Assembly (NCBI RefSeq): GCF_000497125.1
Contig: NC_090599.1
Span: 310,001 to 374,000, forward strand
DNA: 64,000 bases
Origin: Spironucleus salmonicida
Lineage: Eukaryota
Reading direction: 5' to 3'
The notes beneath the pieces were generated by a model. The model saw only the letters and a list, made by a program, of their open reading frames with translations, was not told the DNA's origin and ran no database searches. This document shows positions 42,519 to 59,800 of the stretch, piece by piece. Made by a program: the position numbers and the translations under genes. Every line of letters begins with the position of its first letter. The stretch's first letter is position 1.

Positions 42519-42908
42519 ATGATAGTATAGCAGTTCAAGTACTTCTCTTCAACATTATCGTCGATCCACGAAACATCGGCCTTGCGCCCGGAAGCGCCCC
42601 TGCTGTATCTGACCTCCACCTTTTTCGACGGTCAGCACCCCTCGTTGGCCAGGAAATCTTTCGAGGTTCTACGCGGCAACTATGCTCTCCGGTCCCAGAT
42701 GAGGGGTCTCCAGTTCGCCGTGTTCGGGGTCGGCAACAGCGCCTTCACGTGGTTCTGCAGGGCAGCGTATGTGGCACGGGACGAGTTTGTGGGGTATGGT
42801 GCGGAGGAGATACTAGCGGTGCAGAGGTTCGATCGGAAGGGAGTAGATGACTTGGAGAGGGCGCTGCGGTGGTTCTGTGAATAGATGCTGGCGGCGTTGG
42901 GATGGTGA
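42519..42908 (+). pseudogene. Flavodoxin copy with a replaced N-terminus (no FMN phosphate-binding loop)
   Basis: MIVQQFKYF is fused to the body shared with 56819-57268; lacks YASERGYT. Confidence 0.6.
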
Positions 42909-43011
42909 TCTAGGGGAGTCTAGGGTGAACGGAATGGTATAAACTAAGTGGATTATATTGGTACGATGCGAAGTTTGCCTACACAACGGCGGCGGGCGGG
43001 ATGCATTGAGT
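42546..43011. repeat. Outer inverted repeat, left arm (partner 56716-57181)
   Basis: 466 bp, about five substitutions relative to the partner. Confidence 0.95.
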
Positions 43012-43105
43012 GGAGGAAGTAGAGAATACGAAATGACAACACTTATATGCATAAGTACAGTACTTTATTATTAAATATTGGTTTAGTAGTAAATTTAACA
43101 GTAAG

Positions 43106-43288: not shown

Positions 43289-44516
43289 TGTAATTACTCG
43301 AATATATTCTAATACATTTTTAATAAGTATTATATTATTATTATTATAGTAAAGATAAAAATTTAGATACAACACATTTATTAATAAGATATACCGATAT
43401 TTCAAACTGAGTCTTAAATTTAAAAATATGTAAATACAAACATTTAGAATAATAAACAATTTTTCGCCTGTCTTTTATTATCTGGGAAATTATCAAATTA
43501 TAATAGTAGTATATATCTACATATAAATTGTAAAGTAAGTTAGTCATTATAAATAATGTTATTTTAAACTGTATAAATCCATCTGAATAAAATTTTAGAG
43601 CTATAATAATCATTGATGAATTATATAATTAATAATATAATTTATTCTACTAAAGTGCCGGAAATACGATATAAATATTAATAATTCATTTATGATCCTG
43701 TAAGAATTTTTTAAATATATTATTTTTAAAATTCATGTATAAGATATTTCTACAATATAATAATGATAGATTTGTTTTATAATTATATCAAAAAATAAGA
43801 TAAAGTGAGAGCTACCTTTATCTTATGCTAATTAAAGAATCAACACAATTCAATTTGAATTTTCCAGAGTAGTCATTAATATAAATTTGACTGAAAGTAA
43901 CAAACCTAAGACAACTTGTTATTACAGTAACATAAGTTTAGATGAACTTGTAGTTAAGTAAATATAAGTAATAAATAATATAACCTTACGATAATTATAG
44001 TTAGCATGAGGTTTATATTGTAAGGATAATAGTGATGATGGAAGGTAAATTAAAACTTAATGTATATTCAAATTTCCAATAGTAAAAGGAAGTTATAAAT
44101 AAAACTTTACTCTAATAGTCTAAGTTGTTTTATTAATTATATCATCAAAAAGATTCATTGATCAAATAATAAAATAGTAATGGATAACGAATATTTACTT
44201 TTTTTGATAAACAGTGAAACAAAAATTATTGATCACATTTCATTTTATTAACTGAGTTAATTTAATATAATATATCAAGGTTAAAAGTAAATCTAAATAT
44301 AATTATAATAAAACTATTTTAATATTTAGATGTTTAGTTTGATTGTTATATATGATATACATTGATTTATGATTATCTTAAAAGAATAACAATAATAAAT
44401 ATAATAACTTCATTAGAAACTCAATAAAATTGTATTATTCATCCCTGCTGCCAGTATCCCGAAAAACTAAGACGGCACACTGTGTATAATATATGTTATA
44501 ATACCTCTAAACAGTA

Positions 44517-45155
44517 ATGATTAGCAATGAGCCTACACAGCTCCCCTAGATCCCTGCTACGATGTCAGGTAGGCCGCGTGCAAAGGACAAGAAGAGTCCA
44601 GAGGACTCATTCCCAGCTGAGATGTCACAGCGGGTGCCTTTCACCCTTCCCAAGACGGTATCGCCCACGCGCTACAGTCTCCGCGAGCCCGAAGTAAACC
44701 GCTCAATACCCATGTCCACGATGTCACGACGCAGCACCTTCGTGGACTCAGCCATCGCGAGGGGGTAGAAGCTACCTGGGCCCTCGTCCTACCACACTGT
44801 CAGTTTCGCCGTGCAGAGGCCGCGGGTCAATCGCACAGTCGTCACACCATAGACCCGTGATCTGTAGATCAGTATGCAGAGCACCACGAGGACCGAGTTT
44901 AGTGGCAGGTAGGCAGTGGAGGGCAGCTTCAAGTTCCTAGCCAGGACAGTCGGCGCAGCGGACTTCCGCAGCGTAGCAGAACGGTTTGTACCACCAGCAA
45001 TTGGCACTGCCGAGTTCCCAGGAGACGTAGTGCAGGGCTTCAAGAACTCGCGGTCCCGGAGCGCCCAACTGACCCTGAATAGCACGGAGCGGTTCCAAGC
45101 TCCCAGGGAAGAGCCGACGCGACGGTAGAAAGGGCTGCGCTGGTGGGACTACTGA
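44517..45155 (+). CDS. Hypothetical basic S/T/R/P-rich protein with a PGPSSY motif, 212 aa (copy 1)
   Basis: Code-6 ORF MISNEPTQLPQIPATMSGRPR...KGLRWWDY*. Confidence 0.65.
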
Positions 45156-45168
45156 GTGAGGAAGGACA

Positions 45169-45738
45169 TCACTGGGCCTACCGCCCCACTAGGAAGGGCA
45201 TCAGCTTCGCGGCGGCGAGCCCACGGTGGGAGATCCGGTTCTTCTCCTCCATGGTCATGGCTGCGTAGCGAAGGCCGCTTGCGTCGGCTCTGAAGACTGT
45301 ATCGTAGCTGAGGGCACCAAAACTGGAGACTCCCTCCGGGGGCACCATCTCCCCGTGGCACTAGCCAGAGAAGAGCAGCGGTTCGGCGCCGGGGCCTTCG
45401 CAGAAGGCATAGATGCACTGTGCGTAGGCCCGCTTGTCCTCGAAAGCCGAGAGGATCCGCACGAGGCCACCGGCACCCATGCTGGTGAGGAAGTCTTTCA
45501 CGTACGGCCCTGGGAGCTTGTAGTCGAAGGCTGCAAAGCACAACGACACGTCATCCGTTACAACCGGCCCCCCGTAGAGCGCGGCGGCTGCACGGCATTT
45601 AGCGGCGGCGACCTGCTCCGGCGAACCCTACAGCTCGGGAACGTCCAGTGAATGGCTGATCCAATCTACGCCCCCCGCCATGGATGCGAACTCGGCAATC
45701 TTGTGTGCGTTCCCGGTTACAAGACAGACTGGTTTCAT
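45169..45738 (-). CDS. ITPA: Inosine triphosphate pyrophosphatase (Ham1 family), copy 1
   Basis: VTGNAHK, PEL-Q(TAG)-G, VVTDDVSL, LPGPYVK, EEKNRISHR. Confidence 0.93.
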
Positions 45739-45763
45739 TTGGAGCGGGATACGAACCACACAA

Positions 45764-46291
45764 ATGTTCGGTGAGACTCCGGGCGAGAGGCTGGAGCGGC
45801 GGGTCTGCCGGAAATACCGCGGCATGTGTCTATTGGGGGTTCGGGTATCACAGGGGAGCTGGCGGTGCGGTGCACTGGCCATCATGTTACAGGTGCCAGT
45901 CGTATTGGCGTGGCAGTGTGGTTGGGGGCCTGGGCTGGCGCTGTTGGTCTCCTACGCCAGGGTGCTCTCCATGGTCCCCGCGCACGGCACAGCAGCAGAG
46001 GAGGCGGAATACGCTACTGCAGTGCAGCTGATAGCACTTGGGAAGAGCGCACGGAGGATGCACGCCCGCTGGAACAGCCTATCTGTGGAGTTACGGCTGG
46101 CTGTGCTGGGGGCGTGCGGTGTGGCGTCCGAGCTGCTAGGAGGATGGGCGGTATTGGCAGCGGTTGGTATAACGGATTTGTTGTGGCTGGTACCCTGTGT
46201 GGGAGAGAAGGTGCGTGCGGTCGTGCGGAAGGCCGCGGATGCCCTAGCTCCTCTAGTCGAGCGAGCAGGCTATGTGTTACGGAACGAGTGA
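45764..46291 (+). CDS. Hypothetical membrane protein, about 175 aa (copy 1)
   Basis: Two hydrophobic stretches; ends GAGTGA; start uncertain (alternatives 45824 and 45884). Confidence 0.55.
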   Translation: MFGETPGERLERRVCRKYRGMCLLGVRVSQGSWRCGALAIMLQVPVVLAWQCGWGPGLALLVSYARVLSMVPAHGTAAEEAEYATAVQLIALGKSARRMHARWNSLSVELRLAVLGACGVASELLGGWAVLAAVGITDLLWLVPCVGEKVRAVVRKAADALAPLVERAGYVLRNE

Positions 46292-46313
46292 TTAACGACA
46301 GTGCCGGAGTACT

Positions 46314-46528
46314 TCACTGGGAGGTCCTGTGTGCCAAGAAGGAGACACAGTGACCGAGGAGAACTGCTACGAGGAAGCCGTAGGCGACCTTCAGGGCGGA
46401 TTCGGGCATGATGCCGGTTTGCTTGGTACTCTTTCTAGTGTGTTAGTAGAAGTTACGGTTCAGAGTGGCACGGGTGGGACACAGGGATCCCGCCGCCTGC
46501 CTCCTCAAAATAAAACATACTTAGCCAT
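46314..46528 (-). CDS. Sec61beta-like tail-anchored protein, 42 aa, two exons (46521-46528 and 46314-46434), copy 1
   Basis: Mirror of 53896-54110. Confidence 0.7.
46435..46520 (-). other. Predicted 86-nt spliceosomal intron, copy 1
   Basis: GTATGTT...ACTAACACACTAG on the minus strand. Confidence 0.8.
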
Positions 46529-46657
46529 TACAATTAGAGGAATGATCTTTTATTCTAATATATGTTAATATAATACTTTTTTATATATTTTTGATTTCTA
46601 CTCGTCACTTAATTATTATTAATTATATAATAATCGCATATCGAGTAAAATTTCCAA

Positions 46658-47536
46658 TCACTACGTTTCCACCAATACTTATATTCCGAATTTAAGCATA
46701 AAATGTGCTCTTTCAAACGTTTACCCGGTCTTCCGGTTCTTTTCAACCTTAATCCACTCAAGCTCTTCATATACTATCATTCCTACATCCGCTATCAGTT
46801 TTTTTAGTAATAAAATATTAAATCCAATCAAAATAGTTGAATCTCCAGCACGTTAACAAACCACTCCATATTCAAATTGCTGGCTCTCTCTTCTAACAAT
46901 CCGATAATCGTTTTCGGAGTAATCTACAATCACACAAATACCTCCATTTTTGACAGCTGCTTTCGCCATTAAAATCACATTTTTAACCTCTAAAATCGAA
47001 CTCAAAACGAATATAATAAGCACAAAATCAAATTATCCCAGGTTAAACTTAGTTGCATCATCAACACATAAAGAGAGACGTTTTTCATCGTAAAACCGGC
47101 GTTCTTTAGCGTTAGAAATAGCTTGTTTTGAAAAATCAAAAGCTGTAATTTTAACTGCACCATTTTTCTCAAGTAGTGGGAAACATGTTGCACCCGTACC
47201 ACAACCAACATCTAGTACAGAAAAAACAATAGGCTGCTCAAGTGCAAAAGGAACAGAAAGTTATTTTAAATTTGAATCGTAAAGATTGATTTAAGAGCTC
47301 CATGTTGGGTTATGAGGGCACAACTTATATTTTAAATCAGTTTTATGTTCTTTTACCTCCTAATTAAATTTTATCTTAAGTTTGCAAATTGGGCAGATAA
47401 AAAATTTTGTTTTAAGGAATGAAACTTCCTATGTTGGTGGCAGTGGAAATAATTCGGGAATTAATTACCAGAGCCAGTGCCGATCACGATATGGATGATG
47501 TTATACTGAAAAAATTGCATTCCAGTTTTCCTCCAT
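46658..47536 (-). CDS. SAM-dependent methyltransferase, METTL2/METTL6 (tRNA m3C)-like, paralog B, 292 aa
   Basis: NWNAIF...YRDRHWL...PEL, VLDVGCGTG, FVLI..LSSI. Confidence 0.8.
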
Positions 47537-47562
47537 TTAAGGAGTGGAAAACAGAAAAATGA

Positions 47563-48399
47563 TCACTTCGCAGATATTCCTACTTTGACTATAAAATGTG
47601 ATCTTACAAATGTGTATCCTGTTTTCCGATTCATCTCCTATCGAGTCCATACAAATTTTTCATAAACAACAAATCCAATTTCGACCAAATACTATTCTAA
47701 AAGTTCCAAATCAAACCCTAGAAGCAAAGTGCCATCTCCCTCACGCACACACTAAATTCCAAAATCTGTCATAGTTCCATTTCTTTTAATCACTTTTGTG
47801 TCTAAATTGCTGTAATCCGTAATGAATAGGACACCATTTATCTTAAGTTGTGTTTTCATGTTTCGGAGGCACCCCTTCACATCTGGAATTGCACTCAAAA
47901 CGAATATTAATACGGCATAGTCGAATTACCCAATTTAACATGTCACTGCATCGTCTACGAGTCCCAAAATGCGTTCCTCGTCATAAAATTCTCGTTTTTT
48001 AAGCCAGTTTATTGCCGTCTCAGAAAAATCAAAGGCAGTAACTTTCACTGCTCCATTTTTCTCTAAAAGTGGAATGGATGTTGAACCTGTTCCACAACCA
48101 ACGTCTAGTAGCGATATTTAAGGTTCAATTTTACTAGCAAAGGGCACTTGTGCAGCACGAAGCTGGTCTTTTTATTGGGTCAAATCAATTTAAGACTGAT
48201 ATAAAGGCATGTGGATGCAAGATGCTCTGATTTCGTATAATTTAGCACACTGCGCGCAGGCGAATGTTTTACAGAGAATTTCCTCAGAGGAGCGGTGTGC
48301 AGGGACAGGGAACAATTCTGGAATCAATATCCAGAGCCAATGGCGGTCCTAATAAGGGTGTTTCTATGTTTTAAAAAATCGCTCCCATGGTTTGTTCAT
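47563..48399 (-). CDS. SAM-dependent methyltransferase, METTL2/METTL6-like, paralog A, 278 aa
   Basis: PWERFF...YQDRHWL...PEL, LLDVGCGTGSTSIPLL, DFSETAI, IFVLSAIP. Confidence 0.82.
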
Positions 48400-48421
48400 T
48401 TTAGGAGTGAAAAGAATAAAA

Positions 48422-50374
48422 TCATTCGAAGCCAAAAAGATCGTCTAAAATATTTTTCGCTGCAGCTTGAGGTTATGACACTGGGTACGCATCCTAGCTT
48501 TCGTCGACTGTTAAACCCTACAAATTGATATCAAGAGACTCCTCATCGTCTTCTGACTTTTACTTCTTCTCAATTGTGTTCTTGACAGCAACCCTAGAAA
48601 TAGAGCTGTACATCCCTAAATTGGGGACAAAGATGTTAAATGCATCAACGGGGTCTACAACTCTGGTGGCCTTGTTACCGTCAAAACCGAGCTCGCCACC
48701 AAAAATAATACTTCTAGCGTCAGCCAAATCATCGAGGCTCAGCAATCTCCAATAGAAGAACGCACGCTCTCTTACATCAGGAGAAAAAATTTTTGCCTCC
48801 TTATCCTTTCCAGTTGCAGCGGCTAGGAGACTCTATGCTAACGCCTAAGACTACTCGGTGGAGTTATGCAAAAATACTTTCACCGCGGCGCTCAGGAGTG
48901 CTAACTAAACACTCTCCTGTTCCTCCGAAAACTTATCACTGAAGTTTTCAATAACATCTGCGGCATTTTCAATCGATTAAGACTGAGCACCAATGACGTC
49001 AAACAGAGCGCATCTTGCGCTGGGATCATCCACAGCAGTAACAAGCTGCAAAATTTACAAAATTGCCGCATCAAAATACCCAGGATAGCAGCGTACAACG
49101 TCACGAATCGATACTATAGCCTCCTGTGCCACGACAGTATACGAAGTAGCTTTTTTGGAAGTTTTCTCTAAATATAGTGCTCCATCTCCATCGGCTTATT
49201 CATTCGAAACCTTTGAGACTAAATCTACCAAAATCTGAACACAATACCCGCTTGCATTGATGAGCTTAATCGCCAGCTTACCGATCAAGTTTACACACTT
49301 TTTGACGAATTTTTGCTCTACATCAGATACACAGTAATCTTTAAGCTCTTCAAGCAAAACTGATACATTTTCGTCATTTGCAACCTGTAGCAGTACCTCT
49401 AGTTTCTCCAATTTTATGTACAACGGATCTAAATAGCTTGGGAGTAATGGACGAATTTCAAATGATATCCATCCCGGGAAGGCTGAAATAACAGATGCTA
49501 CTGAGCGCAAAGTTAGATATTGAATTTATGGGGATTCTGTAGACAAAAGTGTAATAAATGATGGCACAGTTCTGGTAATGTATTAATATCTTTATTCATC
49601 TGGAAGGTATTTTACAATGTTCAGTATTGATTTAATAGAGTTAATAACGACTGATGGATTCGCATGTTAAAGTTTGGTAGAAATTTTCTCAACCGCAGCA
49701 AGGGCTTAGTATGTATCCTTAGGAACAAATTTTGACAGACTTTCTAAAAGATATACCAAACCCCATTCGTTAGACTCTGCAGTAGCAGTCAAAATGGTTT
49801 AGAAAATGTTATCGTCTTATTAAAATAATTACTCTTGATGTAACTACATGAGAGATGCCACTGCATTTGAAATAACTGCCTAATTTGAGTCTTACAATAA
49901 AATAATAAGCTCAGGGAGTAAAATCTTTAGTTGGTCTGGACTTGTGACACAAACTTTTGCACATGCTATAGCTGCAGTTTTTCTTACATATGGATCAGCA
50001 TCATGCATGGCTTTCACTAAAGGAGAAATCAGGTATTCAATAATTTAAACTAAAGGTATTGAACTCATAGTACGAATAGCTAATGCCCTAATAATAGAAG
50101 AATCATTATTATCTGCATCTTTGAGAAATGCGTTAACTGCCAATAAACATGACTTAGGCTATTTTGTAGAAAAATTCATAAGATAAAGATATACTAACTT
50201 CTTTAGTTCTAAATCTTTAGAGAATATTGTCTTAACTACATCTGTGAAAATCCAAGACACATCTCGTTATGATGTCATTGCTACAATAATTTCTTGCATA
50301 GTTATTTTTTTCATAAATTCTGAGCCCGTACGGAGTGATTCCTGCCACTCCTAGTTTTCCTATTTTCCTGACAT
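48422..50374 (-). CDS. Beta-adaptin (AP-1/AP-2 beta) trunk without an appendage, 650 aa
   Basis: DLELKKLVYLYLMN, IIRALAIRTM, DADPYVRKTAA, LYIKLEKLEVL, SPDVRERAFFYWRLL. Confidence 0.9.
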
Positions 50375-53081: not shown

Positions 53082-53774
53082 ATGTCCGAAAAGGACTTCT
53101 AAGAATTAATAGAAGCAATCACTTCACATTCGGCAAATGGAGTTGAAATATAATCTAGGATCCATGTATATTCATCTAGAACAGCTGATAATAATTATTT
53201 GCCCAATACATAAATTTTAAACTAGCAAAATAGGCCATCATCATTAGTGTCGTTCTCACCAACAGAGGTTATGGCACCTGCATTCTCTAATAATACAATT
53301 GCTGCTGCTTCAAAGACGTTTAATATACTTGTATAAGCAATATCATAAACATACTATGAAATTGACGATATTCTAATAACACCTTAAATGTTATTTTCAG
53401 TAGAGTATTCATCTGCAATTGAAGCTACTTCAGCCACATTAAGAGCTGCTTTAAACAACTCCTAAGAAATTATTTCTTATTTTAAACTTATTGTTGCATC
53501 TATTTGTCCTAAACATCATTCACATGTATTTACCATAGACTTTTAAAATTCATACAATTTTATTGAGACAGATGGAGGAATATGGAGTCAAAATTATCTA
53601 TTCTGGAATTATTTAACCAAAAAAGTTTTAGTTTTCACACTTGTAGCATTAGCTGAGGAAAGCTCAAGTTCTGAAGAAGACAGTGATAATCATAATGAAG
53701 ATTGCACAAAAAATCTACCCGATAACCAAATTGATAATGTTTTTGGTGATGCTAAATTTTTTACATTCGAGTGA
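53082..53774 (+). CDS. MAF1: Divergent Maf1 (RNA polymerase III repressor), 230 aa
   Basis: SRIHVYSSR (cf. GRIESYSCK), DGGIWSQNYLFWNYLTKKVLVF (cf. [21 protein letters not shown]), acidic tail. Confidence 0.72.
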
Positions 53775-53895
53775 GAGTAAGTATTAAAATTCTCTTAAAA
53801 TATTAACGTGGTTGATTACGTTTTAATTAAAATAATATATTAAAGAATTCATAATATATTATGTATTATCTTACAATTCAATTCCTCTAATTGTA

Positions 53896-54110
53896 ATGGC
53901 TAAGTATGTTTTATTTTGAGGAGGCAGGCGGCGGGATCCCTGTGTCCCACCCGTGCCACTCTGAACCGTAACTTCTACTAACACACTAGAAAGAGTACCA
54001 AGCAAACCGGCATCATGCCCGAATCCGCCCTGAAGGTCGCCTACGGCTTCCTCGTAGCAGTTCTCCTCGGTCACTGTGTCTCCTTCTTGGCACACAGGAC
54101 CTCCCAGTGA
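53896..54110 (+). CDS. Sec61beta-like tail-anchored protein, 42 aa, two exons (53896-53903 and 53990-54110), copy 2
   Basis: Spliced product MAKKSTKQTGIMPESALKVAYGFLVAVLLGHCVSFLAHRTSQ*; the P..L....F...V..H spacing resembles the Sec61beta TM; ends CAGTGA. Confidence 0.7.
53904..53989 (+). other. Predicted 86-nt spliceosomal intron, copy 2
   Basis: 5' GTATGTT and fused branch point/3' site ACTAACACACTAG; removal puts the upstream ATG in frame. Confidence 0.8.
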
Positions 54111-54132
54111 AGTACTCCGGCACTGTCGTTAA

Positions 54133-54660
54133 TCACTCGTTCCGTAACACATAGCCTGCTCGCTCGACTAGAGGAGCTAGGGCATCCGCGGCCTTCCGCA
54201 CGACCGCACGCACCTTCTCTCCCACACAGGGTACCAGCCACAACAAATCCGTTATACCAACCGCTGCCAATACCGCCCATCCTCCTAGCAGCTCGGACGC
54301 CACACCGCACGCCCCCAGCACAGCCAGCCGTAACTCCACAGATAGGCTGTTCCAGCGGGCGTGCATCCTCCGTGCGCTCTTCCCAAGTGCTATCAGCTGC
54401 ACTGCAGTAGCGTATTCCGCCTCCTCTGCTGCTGTGCCGTGCGCGGGGACCATGGAGAGCACCCTGGCGTAGGAGACCAACAGCGCCAGCCCAGGCCCCC
54501 AACCACACTGCCACGCCAATACGACTGGCACCTGTAACATGATGGCCAGTGCACCGCACCGCCAGCTCCCCTGTGATACCCGAACCCCCAATAGACACAT
54601 GCCGCGGTATTTCCGGCAGACCCGCCGCTCCAGCCTCTCGCCCGGAGTCTCACCGAACAT
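54133..54660 (-). CDS. Hypothetical membrane protein (copy 2)
   Basis: Mirror of 45764-46291. Confidence 0.55.
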   Translation of the reverse strand: MFGETPGERLERRVCRKYRGMCLLGVRVSQGSWRCGALAIMLQVPVVLAWQCGWGPGLALLVSYARVLSMVPAHGTAAEEAEYATAVQLIALGKSARRMHARWNSLSVELRLAVLGACGVASELLGGWAVLAAVGITDLLWLVPCVGEKVRAVVRKAADALAPLVERAGYVLRNE

Positions 54661-54685
54661 TTGTGTGGTTCGTATCCCGCTCCAA

Positions 54686-55255
54686 ATGAAACCAGTCTGT
54701 CTTGTAACCGGGAACGCACACAAGATTGCCGAGTTCGCATCCATGGCGGGGGGCGTAGATTGGATCAGCCATTCACTGGACGTTCCCGAGCTGTAGGGTT
54801 CGCCGGAGCAGGTCGCCGCCGCTAAATGCCGTGCAGCCGCCGCGCTCTACGGGGGGCCGGTTGTAACGGATGACGTGTCGTTGTGCTTTGCAGCCTTCGA
54901 CTACAAGCTCCCAGGGCCGTACGTGAAAGACTTCCTCACCAGCATGGGTGCCGGTGGCCTCGTGCGGATCCTCTCGGCTTTCGAGGACAAGCGGGCCTAC
55001 GCACAGTGCATCTATGCCTTCTGCGAAGGCCCCGGCGCCGAACCGCTGCTCTTCTCTGGCTAGTGCCACGGGGAGATGGTGCCCCCGGAGGGAGTCTCCA
55101 GTTTTGGTGCCCTCAGCTACGATACAGTCTTCAGAGCCGACGCAAGCGGCCTTCGCTACGCAGCCATGACCATGGAGGAGAAGAACCGGATCTCCCACCG
55201 TGGGCTCGCCGCCGCGAAGCTGATGCCCTTCCTAGTGGGGCGGTAGGCCCAGTGA
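54686..55255 (+). CDS. ITPA: Inosine triphosphate pyrophosphatase (Ham1 family), copy 2, 189 aa
   Basis: Same motifs as copy 1; ends CAGTGA. Confidence 0.93.
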
Positions 55256-55268
55256 TGTCCTTCCTCAC

Positions 55269-55907
55269 TCAGTAGTCCCACCAGCGCAGCCCTTTCTACC
55301 GTCGCGTCGGCTCTTCCCTGGGAGCTTGGAACCGCTCCGTGCTATTCAGGGTCAGTTGGGCGCTCCGGGACCGCGAGTTCTTGAAGCCCTGCACTACGTC
55401 TCCTGGGAACTCGGCAGTGCCAATTGCTGGTGGTACAAACCGTTCTGCTACGCTGCGGAAGTCCGCTGCGCCGACTGTCCTGGCTAGGAACTTGAAGCTG
55501 CCCTCCACTGCCTACCTGCCACTAAACTCGGTCCTCGTGGTGCTCTGCATACTGATCTACAGATCACGGGTCTATGGTGTGACGACTGTGCGATTGACCC
55601 GCGGCCTCTGCACGGCGAAACTGACAGTGTGGTAGGACGAGGGCCCAGGTAGCTTCTACCCCCTCGCGATGGCTGAGTCCACGAAGGTGCTGCGTCGTGA
55701 CATCGTGGACATGGGTATTGAGCGGTTTACTTCGGGCTCGCGGAGACTGTAGCGCGTGGGCGATACCGTCTTGGGAAGGGTGAAAGGCACCCGCTGTGAC
55801 ATCTCAGCTGGGAATGAGTCCTCTGGACTCTTCTTGTCCTTTGCACGCGGCCTACCTGACATCGTAGCAGGGATCTAGGGGAGCTGTGTAGGCTCATTGC
55901 TAATCAT
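55269..55907 (-). CDS. Hypothetical basic protein with a PGPSSY motif (copy 2)
   Basis: Mirror of 44517-45155. Confidence 0.65.
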
Positions 55908-56395
55908 TACTGTTTAGAGGTATTATAACATATATTATACACAGTGTGCCGTCTTAGTTTTTCGGGATACTGGCAGCAGAGATAAAATGGAGTCTAAAGT
56001 TGGAAGCTAGATTGAATTTCTATTATGTATTTATAAGATTGGTTCATTGTATGACTGTCCTCATTACTTATTCTTGGTTTTATCAATATGTTAATTATTT
56101 ATATTATAATGTTAAAAATTTAGTTTAAGTTTCATGATTTGAATATTACAAATTTTATTTGTAACGCAATTAATGTTTTATTGAAAGAATTAACTATATT
56201 AGATATTCACCAAGGAATTTTTTAATAGAATTTGTTTATTAGGGGAATTATGAGGTAATTACGAATATTACAAAAATATAACCTTATTAATAAATAAAGT
56301 AAAATGAAAATATAAATTAAACAAATTCTAGTGATATTATTTTATTAATATTTATTAATAATACAGTATGTTAGAGTAATCTAGAATAATTTAGA

Positions 56396-56578: not shown

Positions 56579-56715
56579 CGAATATATAATATTATAGATA
56601 CGTTAACTACAATATATATATATATAATTTTTTAATCAGTTTATACATCTAACAGTTTACTAGCCTTTAGCTGCCCTACATTTTCTAAAAATACCGACTT
56701 AACGAACTATCCTCT

Positions 56716-57181
56716 ACTCAATGCATCCCACCCGCCGCCGTTGTGTAGGCAAACTTCGCATCGTACCAATATAATCCACTTAGTTTATACCATTCCGTTC
56801 ACCCTAGACTCCCCTAGATCACCATCCTAACGCCGCCAGCACCTATTCACAGAACCACCGCAGCGCCCTCTCCAAGTCATCTACTCCCTTCCGATCGAAC
56901 CTCTGCACCGCTAGTATCTCCTCCGCACCATACCCCACAAACTCGTCCCGTGCCATATCCGCTGCCCTGCAGAACCACGTGAAGGCGCTGTTGCCGACCC
57001 CGAACACGGCGAACTGGAGACCCCTCATCTGGGACCGGAGAGCATAGTTGCCGCGTAGAACCTCGAAAGATTTCCTGGCCAACGAGGGGTGCTGACCGTC
57101 GAAAAAGGTGGAGGTCAGATACAGCAGGGGCGCTTCCGGGCGCAAGGCCGATGTTTCGTGGATCGACGATAATGTTGAAGA
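56716..57181. repeat. Outer inverted repeat, right arm
   Basis: Reverse complement of 42546-43011. Confidence 0.95.
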
Positions 57182-59212: not shown

Positions 59213-59800
59213 TCACATCTTGGCGTACCAGTCGAGGCCTCTAGGCTCAAATGGCTTGTCGGCCATGCACACGGGGCACTTCATGGGGGCCTTGGCGCCG
59301 ACGTGGACGTAGCCGCAGATCATGCAGATCCAGGTCGTGTCGTCCTTCTGGGCGAAGACGCTCTCGGTCTCCACGAGCTTGACCAGGTTGGCGAACCGCT
59401 GGGCGTGGTCGGCCTCGATCTTGGCGAGGTTGCGGAACAGGGCTGCGATGGCGGGGAAGCCCTCGTCGGCGGCCACCTTGGAGAAGGCGGGGTAGGCGTG
59501 CTCGGCCTCCTCGGTCTCGCCGGCGACGGCCAGCTTCAGGTTCTCGAGCGTGGTGCCGAGCTTGCCGGCGGGGTAGCAGGCGTTGATCTCGAGGTCGCCG
59601 CCCGCCAGGAAGGAGAAGAGGCGGAAGGCGTGCTGCTTCTCCATCTCGGCGTTGTTGGCGAAGATGTGCTGGATGTAGGGGAAGCCCTCGTCCTTGGCCT
59701 TGTTGGCGAACTGCATGTAGCGGTTGAACGCCTGCGACTCGCCCGCGAAGGCCTTGAGCACGTTCTTTTCGGTTTCGGAACCCTTGATTGACTTAACCAT
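59213..59800 (-). CDS. rbr: Rubrerythrin, 195 aa
   Basis: KAFAGESQA, ExxH di-iron motifs (EKQHA, EADHA), C-terminal rubredoxin WICMICGYVH...KCPVC. Confidence 0.96.
   Translation of the reverse strand: MVKSIKGSETEKNVLKAFAGESQAFNRYMQFANKAKDEGFPYIQHIFANNAEMEKQHAFRLFSFLAGGDLEINACYPAGKLGTTLENLKLAVAGETEEAEHAYPAFSKVAADEGFPAIAALFRNLAKIEADHAQRFANLVKLVETESVFAQKDDTTWICMICGYVHVGAKAPMKCPVCMADKPFEPRGLDWYAKM

Follow-up and report, generated by a model that had tools for sequence, protein, structure and literature searches.

Does a short locus in the diplomonad Spironucleus salmonicida hold a spliced gene that annotation has passed over, and what would such a gene encode? The locus lies at 53896-54110 on the forward strand of 64,000 nucleotides (nt) of contig NC_090599.1 (assembly GCF_000497125.1, positions 310,001 to 374,000); this whole stretch is called the window here, and all coordinates are counted from its first letter. 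An earlier note, written from the letters alone, had proposed that the locus is a 42-residue Sec61-beta-like gene interrupted by a spliceosomal intron and present twice. The accessible text of Xu 2014 and Xu 2022 lists only four cis-introns for S. salmonicida. We regard it as highly probable that the intron-like element is genuine and spliced. On whether the peptide is the diplomonad Sec61-beta our judgement is evenly balanced, and an even chance is also what we give the account as a whole, in which a minimal Sec61-beta gene carries a cis-spliceosomal intron, U2-type and like those of Spironucleus, that earlier lists lack.

Read directly, the sequence has an ATG at 53896-53898 that opens a first exon of eight letters, ATGGCTAA (53896-53903, +), which encodes Met and Ala and supplies the first two letters of a Lys codon. 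It is followed by an 86-nt GT...AG element, the candidate spliceosomal intron (53904-53989, +; phase 2, 52% G+C), which starts with GTATGTTTTA and ends with ACTAACACACTAG (as a longer string, its terminal letters are GTAACTTCTACTAACACACTAG). Exon 2 (53990-54110, +) runs to the last letters CCCAGTGA and the stop TGA at 54108-54110. In scripted translation the frame from this ATG meets a stop after 7 codons if left unspliced, and removal of the 86 nt gives a joined frame of 129 nt, that is 42 codons plus the stop. The intron site is 5′-proximal, after coding nt 8, and removing the element restores a frame that is otherwise interrupted. All of this agrees to the base with the earlier note, which had read ATG GCT AA followed by GTATGTT, a 42-codon frame after removal of 86 nt, and an unspliced stop after 7 codons. 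The mirror copy that it had placed at 46314-46528 is likewise real: it is letter-identical and on the minus strand (exon 1 46528-46521, intron 46520-46435, exon 2 46434-46314), and the two copies lie in inverted arms, 53881-55979 and 44445-46543, that are 100% identical, with 0 differences over 2,099 nt. Annotation has missed the gene, as had been suspected; neither exact look-up nor word-index search finds the peptide in public protein sets.

Signals of the candidate intron and gene

The four published S. salmonicida introns are those of Rps24, Rpl30 (67 nt), SS50377_18398 and SS50377_17358 (Xu 2014; Hudson 2019). According to the sequences in Additional file 5 of Hudson 2019, three are 43 nt long and one 67 nt. 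Xu 2014 describes a common ACTAACAAACTAG in all four, and Hudson 2019 adds an extended donor, GTATGTTTAAC, and an AAC-[T/C]3-4-R motif just 5′ of the branch sequence. Comparison with these lists bears out the earlier note: the 86-nt element is none of the four, yet it bears every feature of theirs. Its extended 5′ splice site GTATGTTTTAT (53904-53914, +) agrees with the published GUAUGUUUUAA at 10 of 11 positions. At the other end (53970-53989, +) an AAC-TTCT-A pyrimidine motif precedes the fused branch point and 3′ splice site ACTAACACACTAG, which agrees with ACTAACAAACTAG at 12 of 13 positions and has its predicted branch A at 53981. The last 22 nt, the AAC-Y4-R motif included, are identical to the published introns at 18-20 of 22 positions.

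These signals are rare in the window, and their pattern exceeds what chance would give. The sequence AACTTCTA, which starts at 53970 and abuts the branch sequence, is the sole such site on each strand of the 64 kb. With at most one mismatch, ACTAACAAACTAG occurs at 2 places only on both strands together, where 0.11 would be expected, and none of 100 shuffles held two matches. The heptamer GTATGTT occurs 9 times in the 128 kb of both strands. A relaxed scan of the window for a 5′ splice site followed by a branch and 3′ splice site returned only the two gene copies and one alternative upstream donor with the common acceptor. This alternative, a donor-like GTAAGTATTAAA with GTAAGT at 53777, would delimit 53777-53989; it is present at the plus-strand copy only, just past the stop of the neighbouring Maf1-domain gene and 213 nt 5′ of the common acceptor, and is probably a chance match.

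The element shares with the four published introns the GTATGTTTTA donor, the AAC-Y(3-4)-R motif, the ACTAACA.ACTAG branch and acceptor, the 5′-proximal site and an effective length of about 42 nt, and with the 67-nt Rpl30 intron also a hairpin within the intron. It differs from them in being the longest, at 86 nt, in having ACACACTAG in place of ACAAACTAG, in an interior of 52% G+C, and in a host gene that lacks annotation and occurs as two identical copies. The hairpin bears on the length. According to Hudson 2019, long diplomonad introns fold so as to leave the single-stranded distance of a short intron, in S. salmonicida 41 nt (folded Rpl30) versus 43 nt (short introns). In the centroid fold of the element a predicted G+C-rich stem-loop of 44 nt (53918-53961, +; intron nt 15-58) leaves 14 + 28 = 42 nt single-stranded, a modelled effective length that agrees with the published 41-43 nt rule but falls short of proving it here. 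As described in the same paper, pairing likewise sets the spacing between donor and branch/acceptor to that of short introns in the long hairpin introns of S. vortens, Giardia and Trichomonas vaginalis. Those introns were confirmed by expressed sequence tags, RACE (in which the ends of cDNA are rapidly amplified) or reverse-transcription PCR (RT-PCR), whereas the structure here is predicted only and its energy is unremarkable for its composition: the z-score of -1.33, a point against our account, is not significant on its own.

Upstream of exon 1, the two copies share the 15 nt ATTCCTCTAATTGTA (53881-53895, +), with a C-rich patch at -16..-8, and in both an AT-rich, TATA-like sequence lies 5′ of ATTCCTCTAATTGTA and of the exon-1 ATG. 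Xu 2014 reported for S. salmonicida a C-rich motif about 10 bp 5′ of start codons, TATA-like motifs at -60..-20 and A's at the start. The layout at our locus fits this promoter pattern, by position and composition only. Within the spliced 42-codon frame, G+C at the three codon positions is 0.54/0.44/0.77, compared with 0.63/0.48/0.76 in the neighbouring Ham1 gene. Against a coding reading, an open frame of 42 codons has no significance where the genome uses a single stop codon.

The predicted 42-residue product and Sec61-beta

The product starts Met-Ala-Lys and has three Lys within its first seven residues. Its best 19-residue Kyte-Doolittle window covers residues 19-37 (mean 2.07) and is followed by a tail of 5 residues. 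The peptide is very probably tail-anchored, with a basic N-terminus and a single C-terminal predicted transmembrane helix. The topology, the basic N-terminus and the shortness of the luminal tail recur in Sec61-beta, Sbh1 and archaeal Sec-beta (PF03911); in size the peptide is near the 47-73 residues (aa) of 29 Asgard archaeal sequences, and it would be the shortest member of the family. In the accessible text of Xu 2014, Sec61-beta and Sec61-gamma were not identifiable in S. salmonicida, and our searches of the literature turned up neither a Spironucleus Sec61-beta nor the 86-nt intron.

The closest parallel is in Giardia intestinalis. Kamikawa 2014 (PMC4085374) described a 41-nt intron in a tiny, unannotated open reading frame (ORF), orfA, verified it by RT-PCR and located the 5′ end of its messenger RNA (mRNA) by 5′RACE; the forward primer that they used stops at the exon edge with ...GAGATGGC. 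Table 1 of Microb Genom 2023 (PMC10711314), as far as it is accessible, lists in row 33 a GT-AG intron of 41 bp at position 4, spliced 'often' (61.6%) and with exon/exon edges TGGC/AAAG, in GL50803_0060002, which is annotated as a 'Sec61beta family protein'. The Giardia gene and the one described here are both tiny, have a GT-AG intron right after the start with a fused branch and acceptor, encode proteins that start Met-Ala-Lys, and were first missed by ORF-based annotation. The Giardia arrangement is ATGGC, intron, AAAG and ours is ATGGCTAA, intron, AAAGAG: both introns are in phase 2, ours one codon later. The two differ in intron length (41 nt versus 86 nt), in the G+C-rich hairpin and the ...CACTAG end of the Spironucleus element, and in that splicing has been verified experimentally in Giardia, whereas here it is predicted from sequence. 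Diplomonad genomes have 4-8 listed cis-introns among thousands of genes, in the accessible parts of the published lists. Since two unrelated tiny genes are unlikely to share an intron site when cis-introns are so few, we lean towards orthology of the 42-aa gene with GL50803_0060002; the likeness is one of published gene structure. A search of metagenome contigs for the Giardia gene with the published forward primer gave 3 loci, all of them chance matches in unrelated DNA. Among the 10 S. vortens intron genes of Additional file 2 of Hudson 2019 there is no Sec61-beta-like gene.

Direct comparison of the peptide with protein collections weighs against a Sec61-beta identity. A Pfam search with the exon-2 peptide gave 0 families at E<=10. 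The sole NCBIfam match was to MtrF and below threshold (E 0.082), PDB sequences gave 0 matches, and the Protein Atlas gave no usable match. A word-index search among proteins of 22-70 aa returned 0 candidates, and HMMER over 1.84 billion representatives returned 3 matches, all of them repeat-protein artefacts. PF03911 was present in 59 of 61 Asgard genomes and in all 5 of the other archaeal entries, and a hidden Markov model (HMM) of Asgard Sec-beta was built from 29 ORFs of 47-73 aa, taken from 29 of the 35 loci returned. In the 16 aligned Asgard sequences A22, G23, L24 and R26 (A-G-L-x-R) are invariant, as is a Pro before the helix. The motif A-G-L-x-R-[FY] is absent from the 18 residues before the helix of the 42-aa peptide, and the invariant Pro is doubtfully matched. 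Against this HMM the spliced peptide scores a weak 6.0 bits, a score reached by 11 of 1000 shuffles that preserve its architecture (N-terminal part, helix, tail), by 0 of 1000 full shuffles and by none of 57 natural decoys with a helix, taken from ORFs of the window; hhalign gives a probability of 31%. The profile evidence for Sec61-beta is weakly positive at best. In a search with the Asgard alignment that gave 3453 matches, the 120 matches listed bore archaeal names or none, with no eukaryotic or Giardia member among them. The comparison by HMM with the Sec61-beta family, which the earlier note had offered as a check on its proposal, gave no family match and at most a weak score. A minimal Sec61-beta gains independent support, to which the earlier note did not refer, from the literature-based parallel with the Giardia intron; against it stand direct profile tests that were negative or weak and a missing AGLxR.

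The alternative that survives best accepts a real, spliced intron and makes the product another small membrane peptide, lineage-specific or too short to classify, in place of Sec61-beta. The failed matches in Pfam, the PDB, the Atlas, NCBIfam and the 1.84 billion representatives, the missing motif and the low hhalign probability all favour it, and a Met-Ala-Lys start and a single C-terminal helix are common features. On the other hand, a Sec61beta-family gene in Giardia has an intron within one codon of this site, in equal phase and with the same ATGGC...|AAAG edges, which would be a striking coincidence between two unrelated tiny genes, and the score against the Asgard profile is above those of 989 of 1000 architecture-preserving shuffles and of all 57 natural decoys. 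We consider this alternative possible, though less probable than a diplomonad Sec61-beta.

Sequenced contigs and splicing

Assembled contigs from four runs of one study (X1 to X4), the only public runs to cover the locus and of a guessed RNA nature, were examined over 53500-56200; such contigs can neither show that a rare form is absent nor establish RNA ends. Two observations weigh against splicing. No contig of the four runs holds a joint of exon 1 to exon 2, and in three of them (X1, X2 and X3) contigs with starts at 53907, 53912 and 53926, inside the intron, cross the 3′ splice site unbroken, so that 64-83 nt of the element lead straight on into exon 2. The sequenced material does contain the unspliced form. 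Gaps in coverage (nothing at 53790-53906 in X1, nothing 5′ of 53990 in X4) are uninformative either way, and contig depths, for example 2567 for a 197-nt X3 contig compared with 269 for its neighbour, are not an expression measure and were left unused. One X3 contig continues past the stop with ten untemplated A's and adapter after 54122, which would delimit a putative 3′ untranslated region (UTR) of 12 nt (54111-54122, +). Since 12 nt past the TGA falls within the 9-14 nt after the stop at which poly(A) starts in 122 of 134 S. salmonicida cDNAs, the A-run hints at a polyadenylated 3′ end of the small gene.

The contigs support a second alternative, in which the element, a decayed intron or a chance match, is left unspliced and the locus gives a 31-aa peptide from the ATG at 54015 or a non-coding RNA. 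The X4 contig, which begins with adapter directly before 53990, may be placed on the same side; it fits several readings and was given no weight. A further point in favour of an unspliced element, and against our account, is that three genome searches, by motif (Xu 2014), by split reads (Hudson 2019) and again by motif (Xu 2022), report in their accessible text that no further S. salmonicida introns came to light. We infer that an exon 1 of 8 nt behind a short leader is too short for split-read mapping, so that the intron could have been overlooked, and an exact search for ACAAACTAG would pass over the ACACACTAG variant (ACACAC); the first assembly, too, may not have resolved the duplicated region that holds the gene. 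Moreover, both copies have every intron signal intact and in identical form, promoter-like features stand at the exon-1 ATG whereas the ATG at 54015 lies in G+C-rich sequence, and splicing brings the first ATG into frame. Giardia offers a precedent, for some of its introns are poorly spliced and are found in both forms (Kamikawa 2014, PMC4085374; Microb Genom 2023, PMC10711314, in their accessible parts). We judge an unspliced element unlikely. The spliceosomal intron of the earlier note is upheld by its strong match to published introns, while its splicing, for which the contigs gave no spliced sequence, is argued from that match.

A third reading denies the stretch a gene and takes it for an untranslated portion of neighbouring transcripts, or for antisense overlap with them, in a G+C-rich island that is densely transcribed. 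It is very improbable: single contigs do cover the island from end to end (starting at 53907 or 53912 and ending at 55891 or 55979) and minus-strand ORFs such as 53664-54185 do overlap it, but that ORF is absent from the protein collection, the untemplated A-run after 54122 lies 12 nt past an in-frame TGA, the codon-position G+C pattern fits the 42-codon frame, and the reading would not account for the intron and promoter signals.

On the account that we prefer, a spliced intron in a minimal Sec61-beta gene, transcription would start a few nt 5′ of the ATG at 53896, from a promoter with TATA-like and C-rich motifs. The reduced diplomonad spliceosome would recognise the GTATGTTTTA donor and the fused branch/acceptor ACTAACACACTAG, with the G+C-rich hairpin shortening the 86-nt intron to the organism-typical effective length of about 42 nt, and would join ATGGCTAA to AAAGAG. 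The resulting mRNA of about 140 nt, polyadenylated about 12 nt after the TGA, would be translated into a 42-aa tail-anchored membrane protein whose N-terminus is basic and whose one helix, near the C-terminal end, is followed by five residues. As a diplomonad-minimal Sec61-beta and the orthologue of GL50803_0060002, this protein would be inserted post-translationally in the endoplasmic reticulum membrane beside Sec61-alpha.

The duplicated island and the meaning of the proposed gene

The arms that hold the two gene copies have about 60% G+C against a background of about 25-30%. Strongly variable G+C is known in S. salmonicida (Andersson 2007), as are G+C-rich duplicated regions (Xu 2022), in what is accessible of these papers, and the window varies in the same way. 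Scans of the window with Rfam and for transfer RNA (tRNA) gave 0 matches, so the island is neither ribosomal RNA nor tRNA. The right arm (53881-55979) carries the small gene, a Ham1/ITPase gene (54686-55255, +; Pfam 1.6e-37) and an annotated ORF of 220 aa (55272-55931, -); the left arm (44445-46543) is its inverted partner. An outer inverted pair, 42546-43017 and 56710-57181, is 472 nt long with 99% identity, and the two pairs together form an interrupted palindrome of about 14.6 kb, whose 7.3-kb centre holds an adaptin gene, two methyltransferase paralogues and Maf1. The segments between inner and outer arms are of unequal length, about 1.4 kb and 0.7 kb. The palindrome could stem from recent duplication, gene conversion or an assembly effect. 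Contigs of three of the four runs end exactly at 55979, the final base common to both arms, as would be expected of a graph branch if both flanks were present in the material.

The MCM, adaptin, DSPc, ArfGAP and Ham1 frames of the window are long and unbroken only with TAA and TAG read as Gln; this code and the scarcity of introns, too, agree with published descriptions of S. salmonicida. Under the standard code the window has 3 ORFs of at least 150 aa, and the standard code and the mitochondrial-type code 4, which leave almost no ORFs, were rejected. With TAA and TAG read as Gln, long unbroken ORFs appear with Pfam matches to MCM (2.7e-84) and to the adaptin N-terminal region (2.8e-87), and further ones to DSPc (dual-specificity phosphatase), ArfGAP, ThiF, LRR and Ham1; Maf1 and rubrerythrin ORFs of the window also have Pfam matches. 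The rubrerythrin gene (59213-59800, -; Pfam 9.3e-28) lies in a G+C-rich patch and is open under the standard code too. The Maf1-domain gene, within 53082-53789, ends with its TGA at 53772-53774; an X1 contig ends at 53789, 15 nt after this stop, in line with the very short published 3′ UTRs of S. salmonicida. The two methyltransferase-domain paralogues (46658-47650 and 47563-48732, -) adjoin each other and the left arm. When 20 ORF variants in and around the island were looked up exactly, only MCM and the 220-aa ORF were present in the protein collection, the MCM translation letter for letter in UniRef and EukProt; Ham1 was absent with any of the 5 starts tried. Between the small gene and Ham1 lies a G+C-rich stretch of 563 nt (54123-54685). 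A minus-strand ORF of 175-203 aa in this region (54136-54660 or 54136-54744) has hydrophobic segments; it gave no Pfam or NCBIfam match and was absent from the protein collection with the 8 starts tried.

What may be new here is a fifth intron of the S. salmonicida type together with a candidate for a minimal Sec61-beta, and possibly an intron site conserved with Giardia. If the account is true, S. salmonicida has a fifth intron, one that occurs in both copies of a gene, its missing translocon subunit has a candidate, and exact-motif and split-read searches are seen to miss introns with tiny first exons. A more tentative reading is that the intron is an ancestral diplomonad one, kept at the same site of Sec61-beta in the Giardia and Spironucleus lineages while nearly all others were lost. 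A site shared with the Giardia Sec61-beta would give studies of intron loss a tangible example of an intron kept over a long time in two lineages with extremely few introns. Were the retention ancestral, this would be the first intron-bearing gene known to be common to Giardia and S. salmonicida, and would argue that splicing is functionally needed for an ultra-short mRNA, for example for its export, stability or translation; such a need would run counter to the published view that no diplomonad gene requires its intron.
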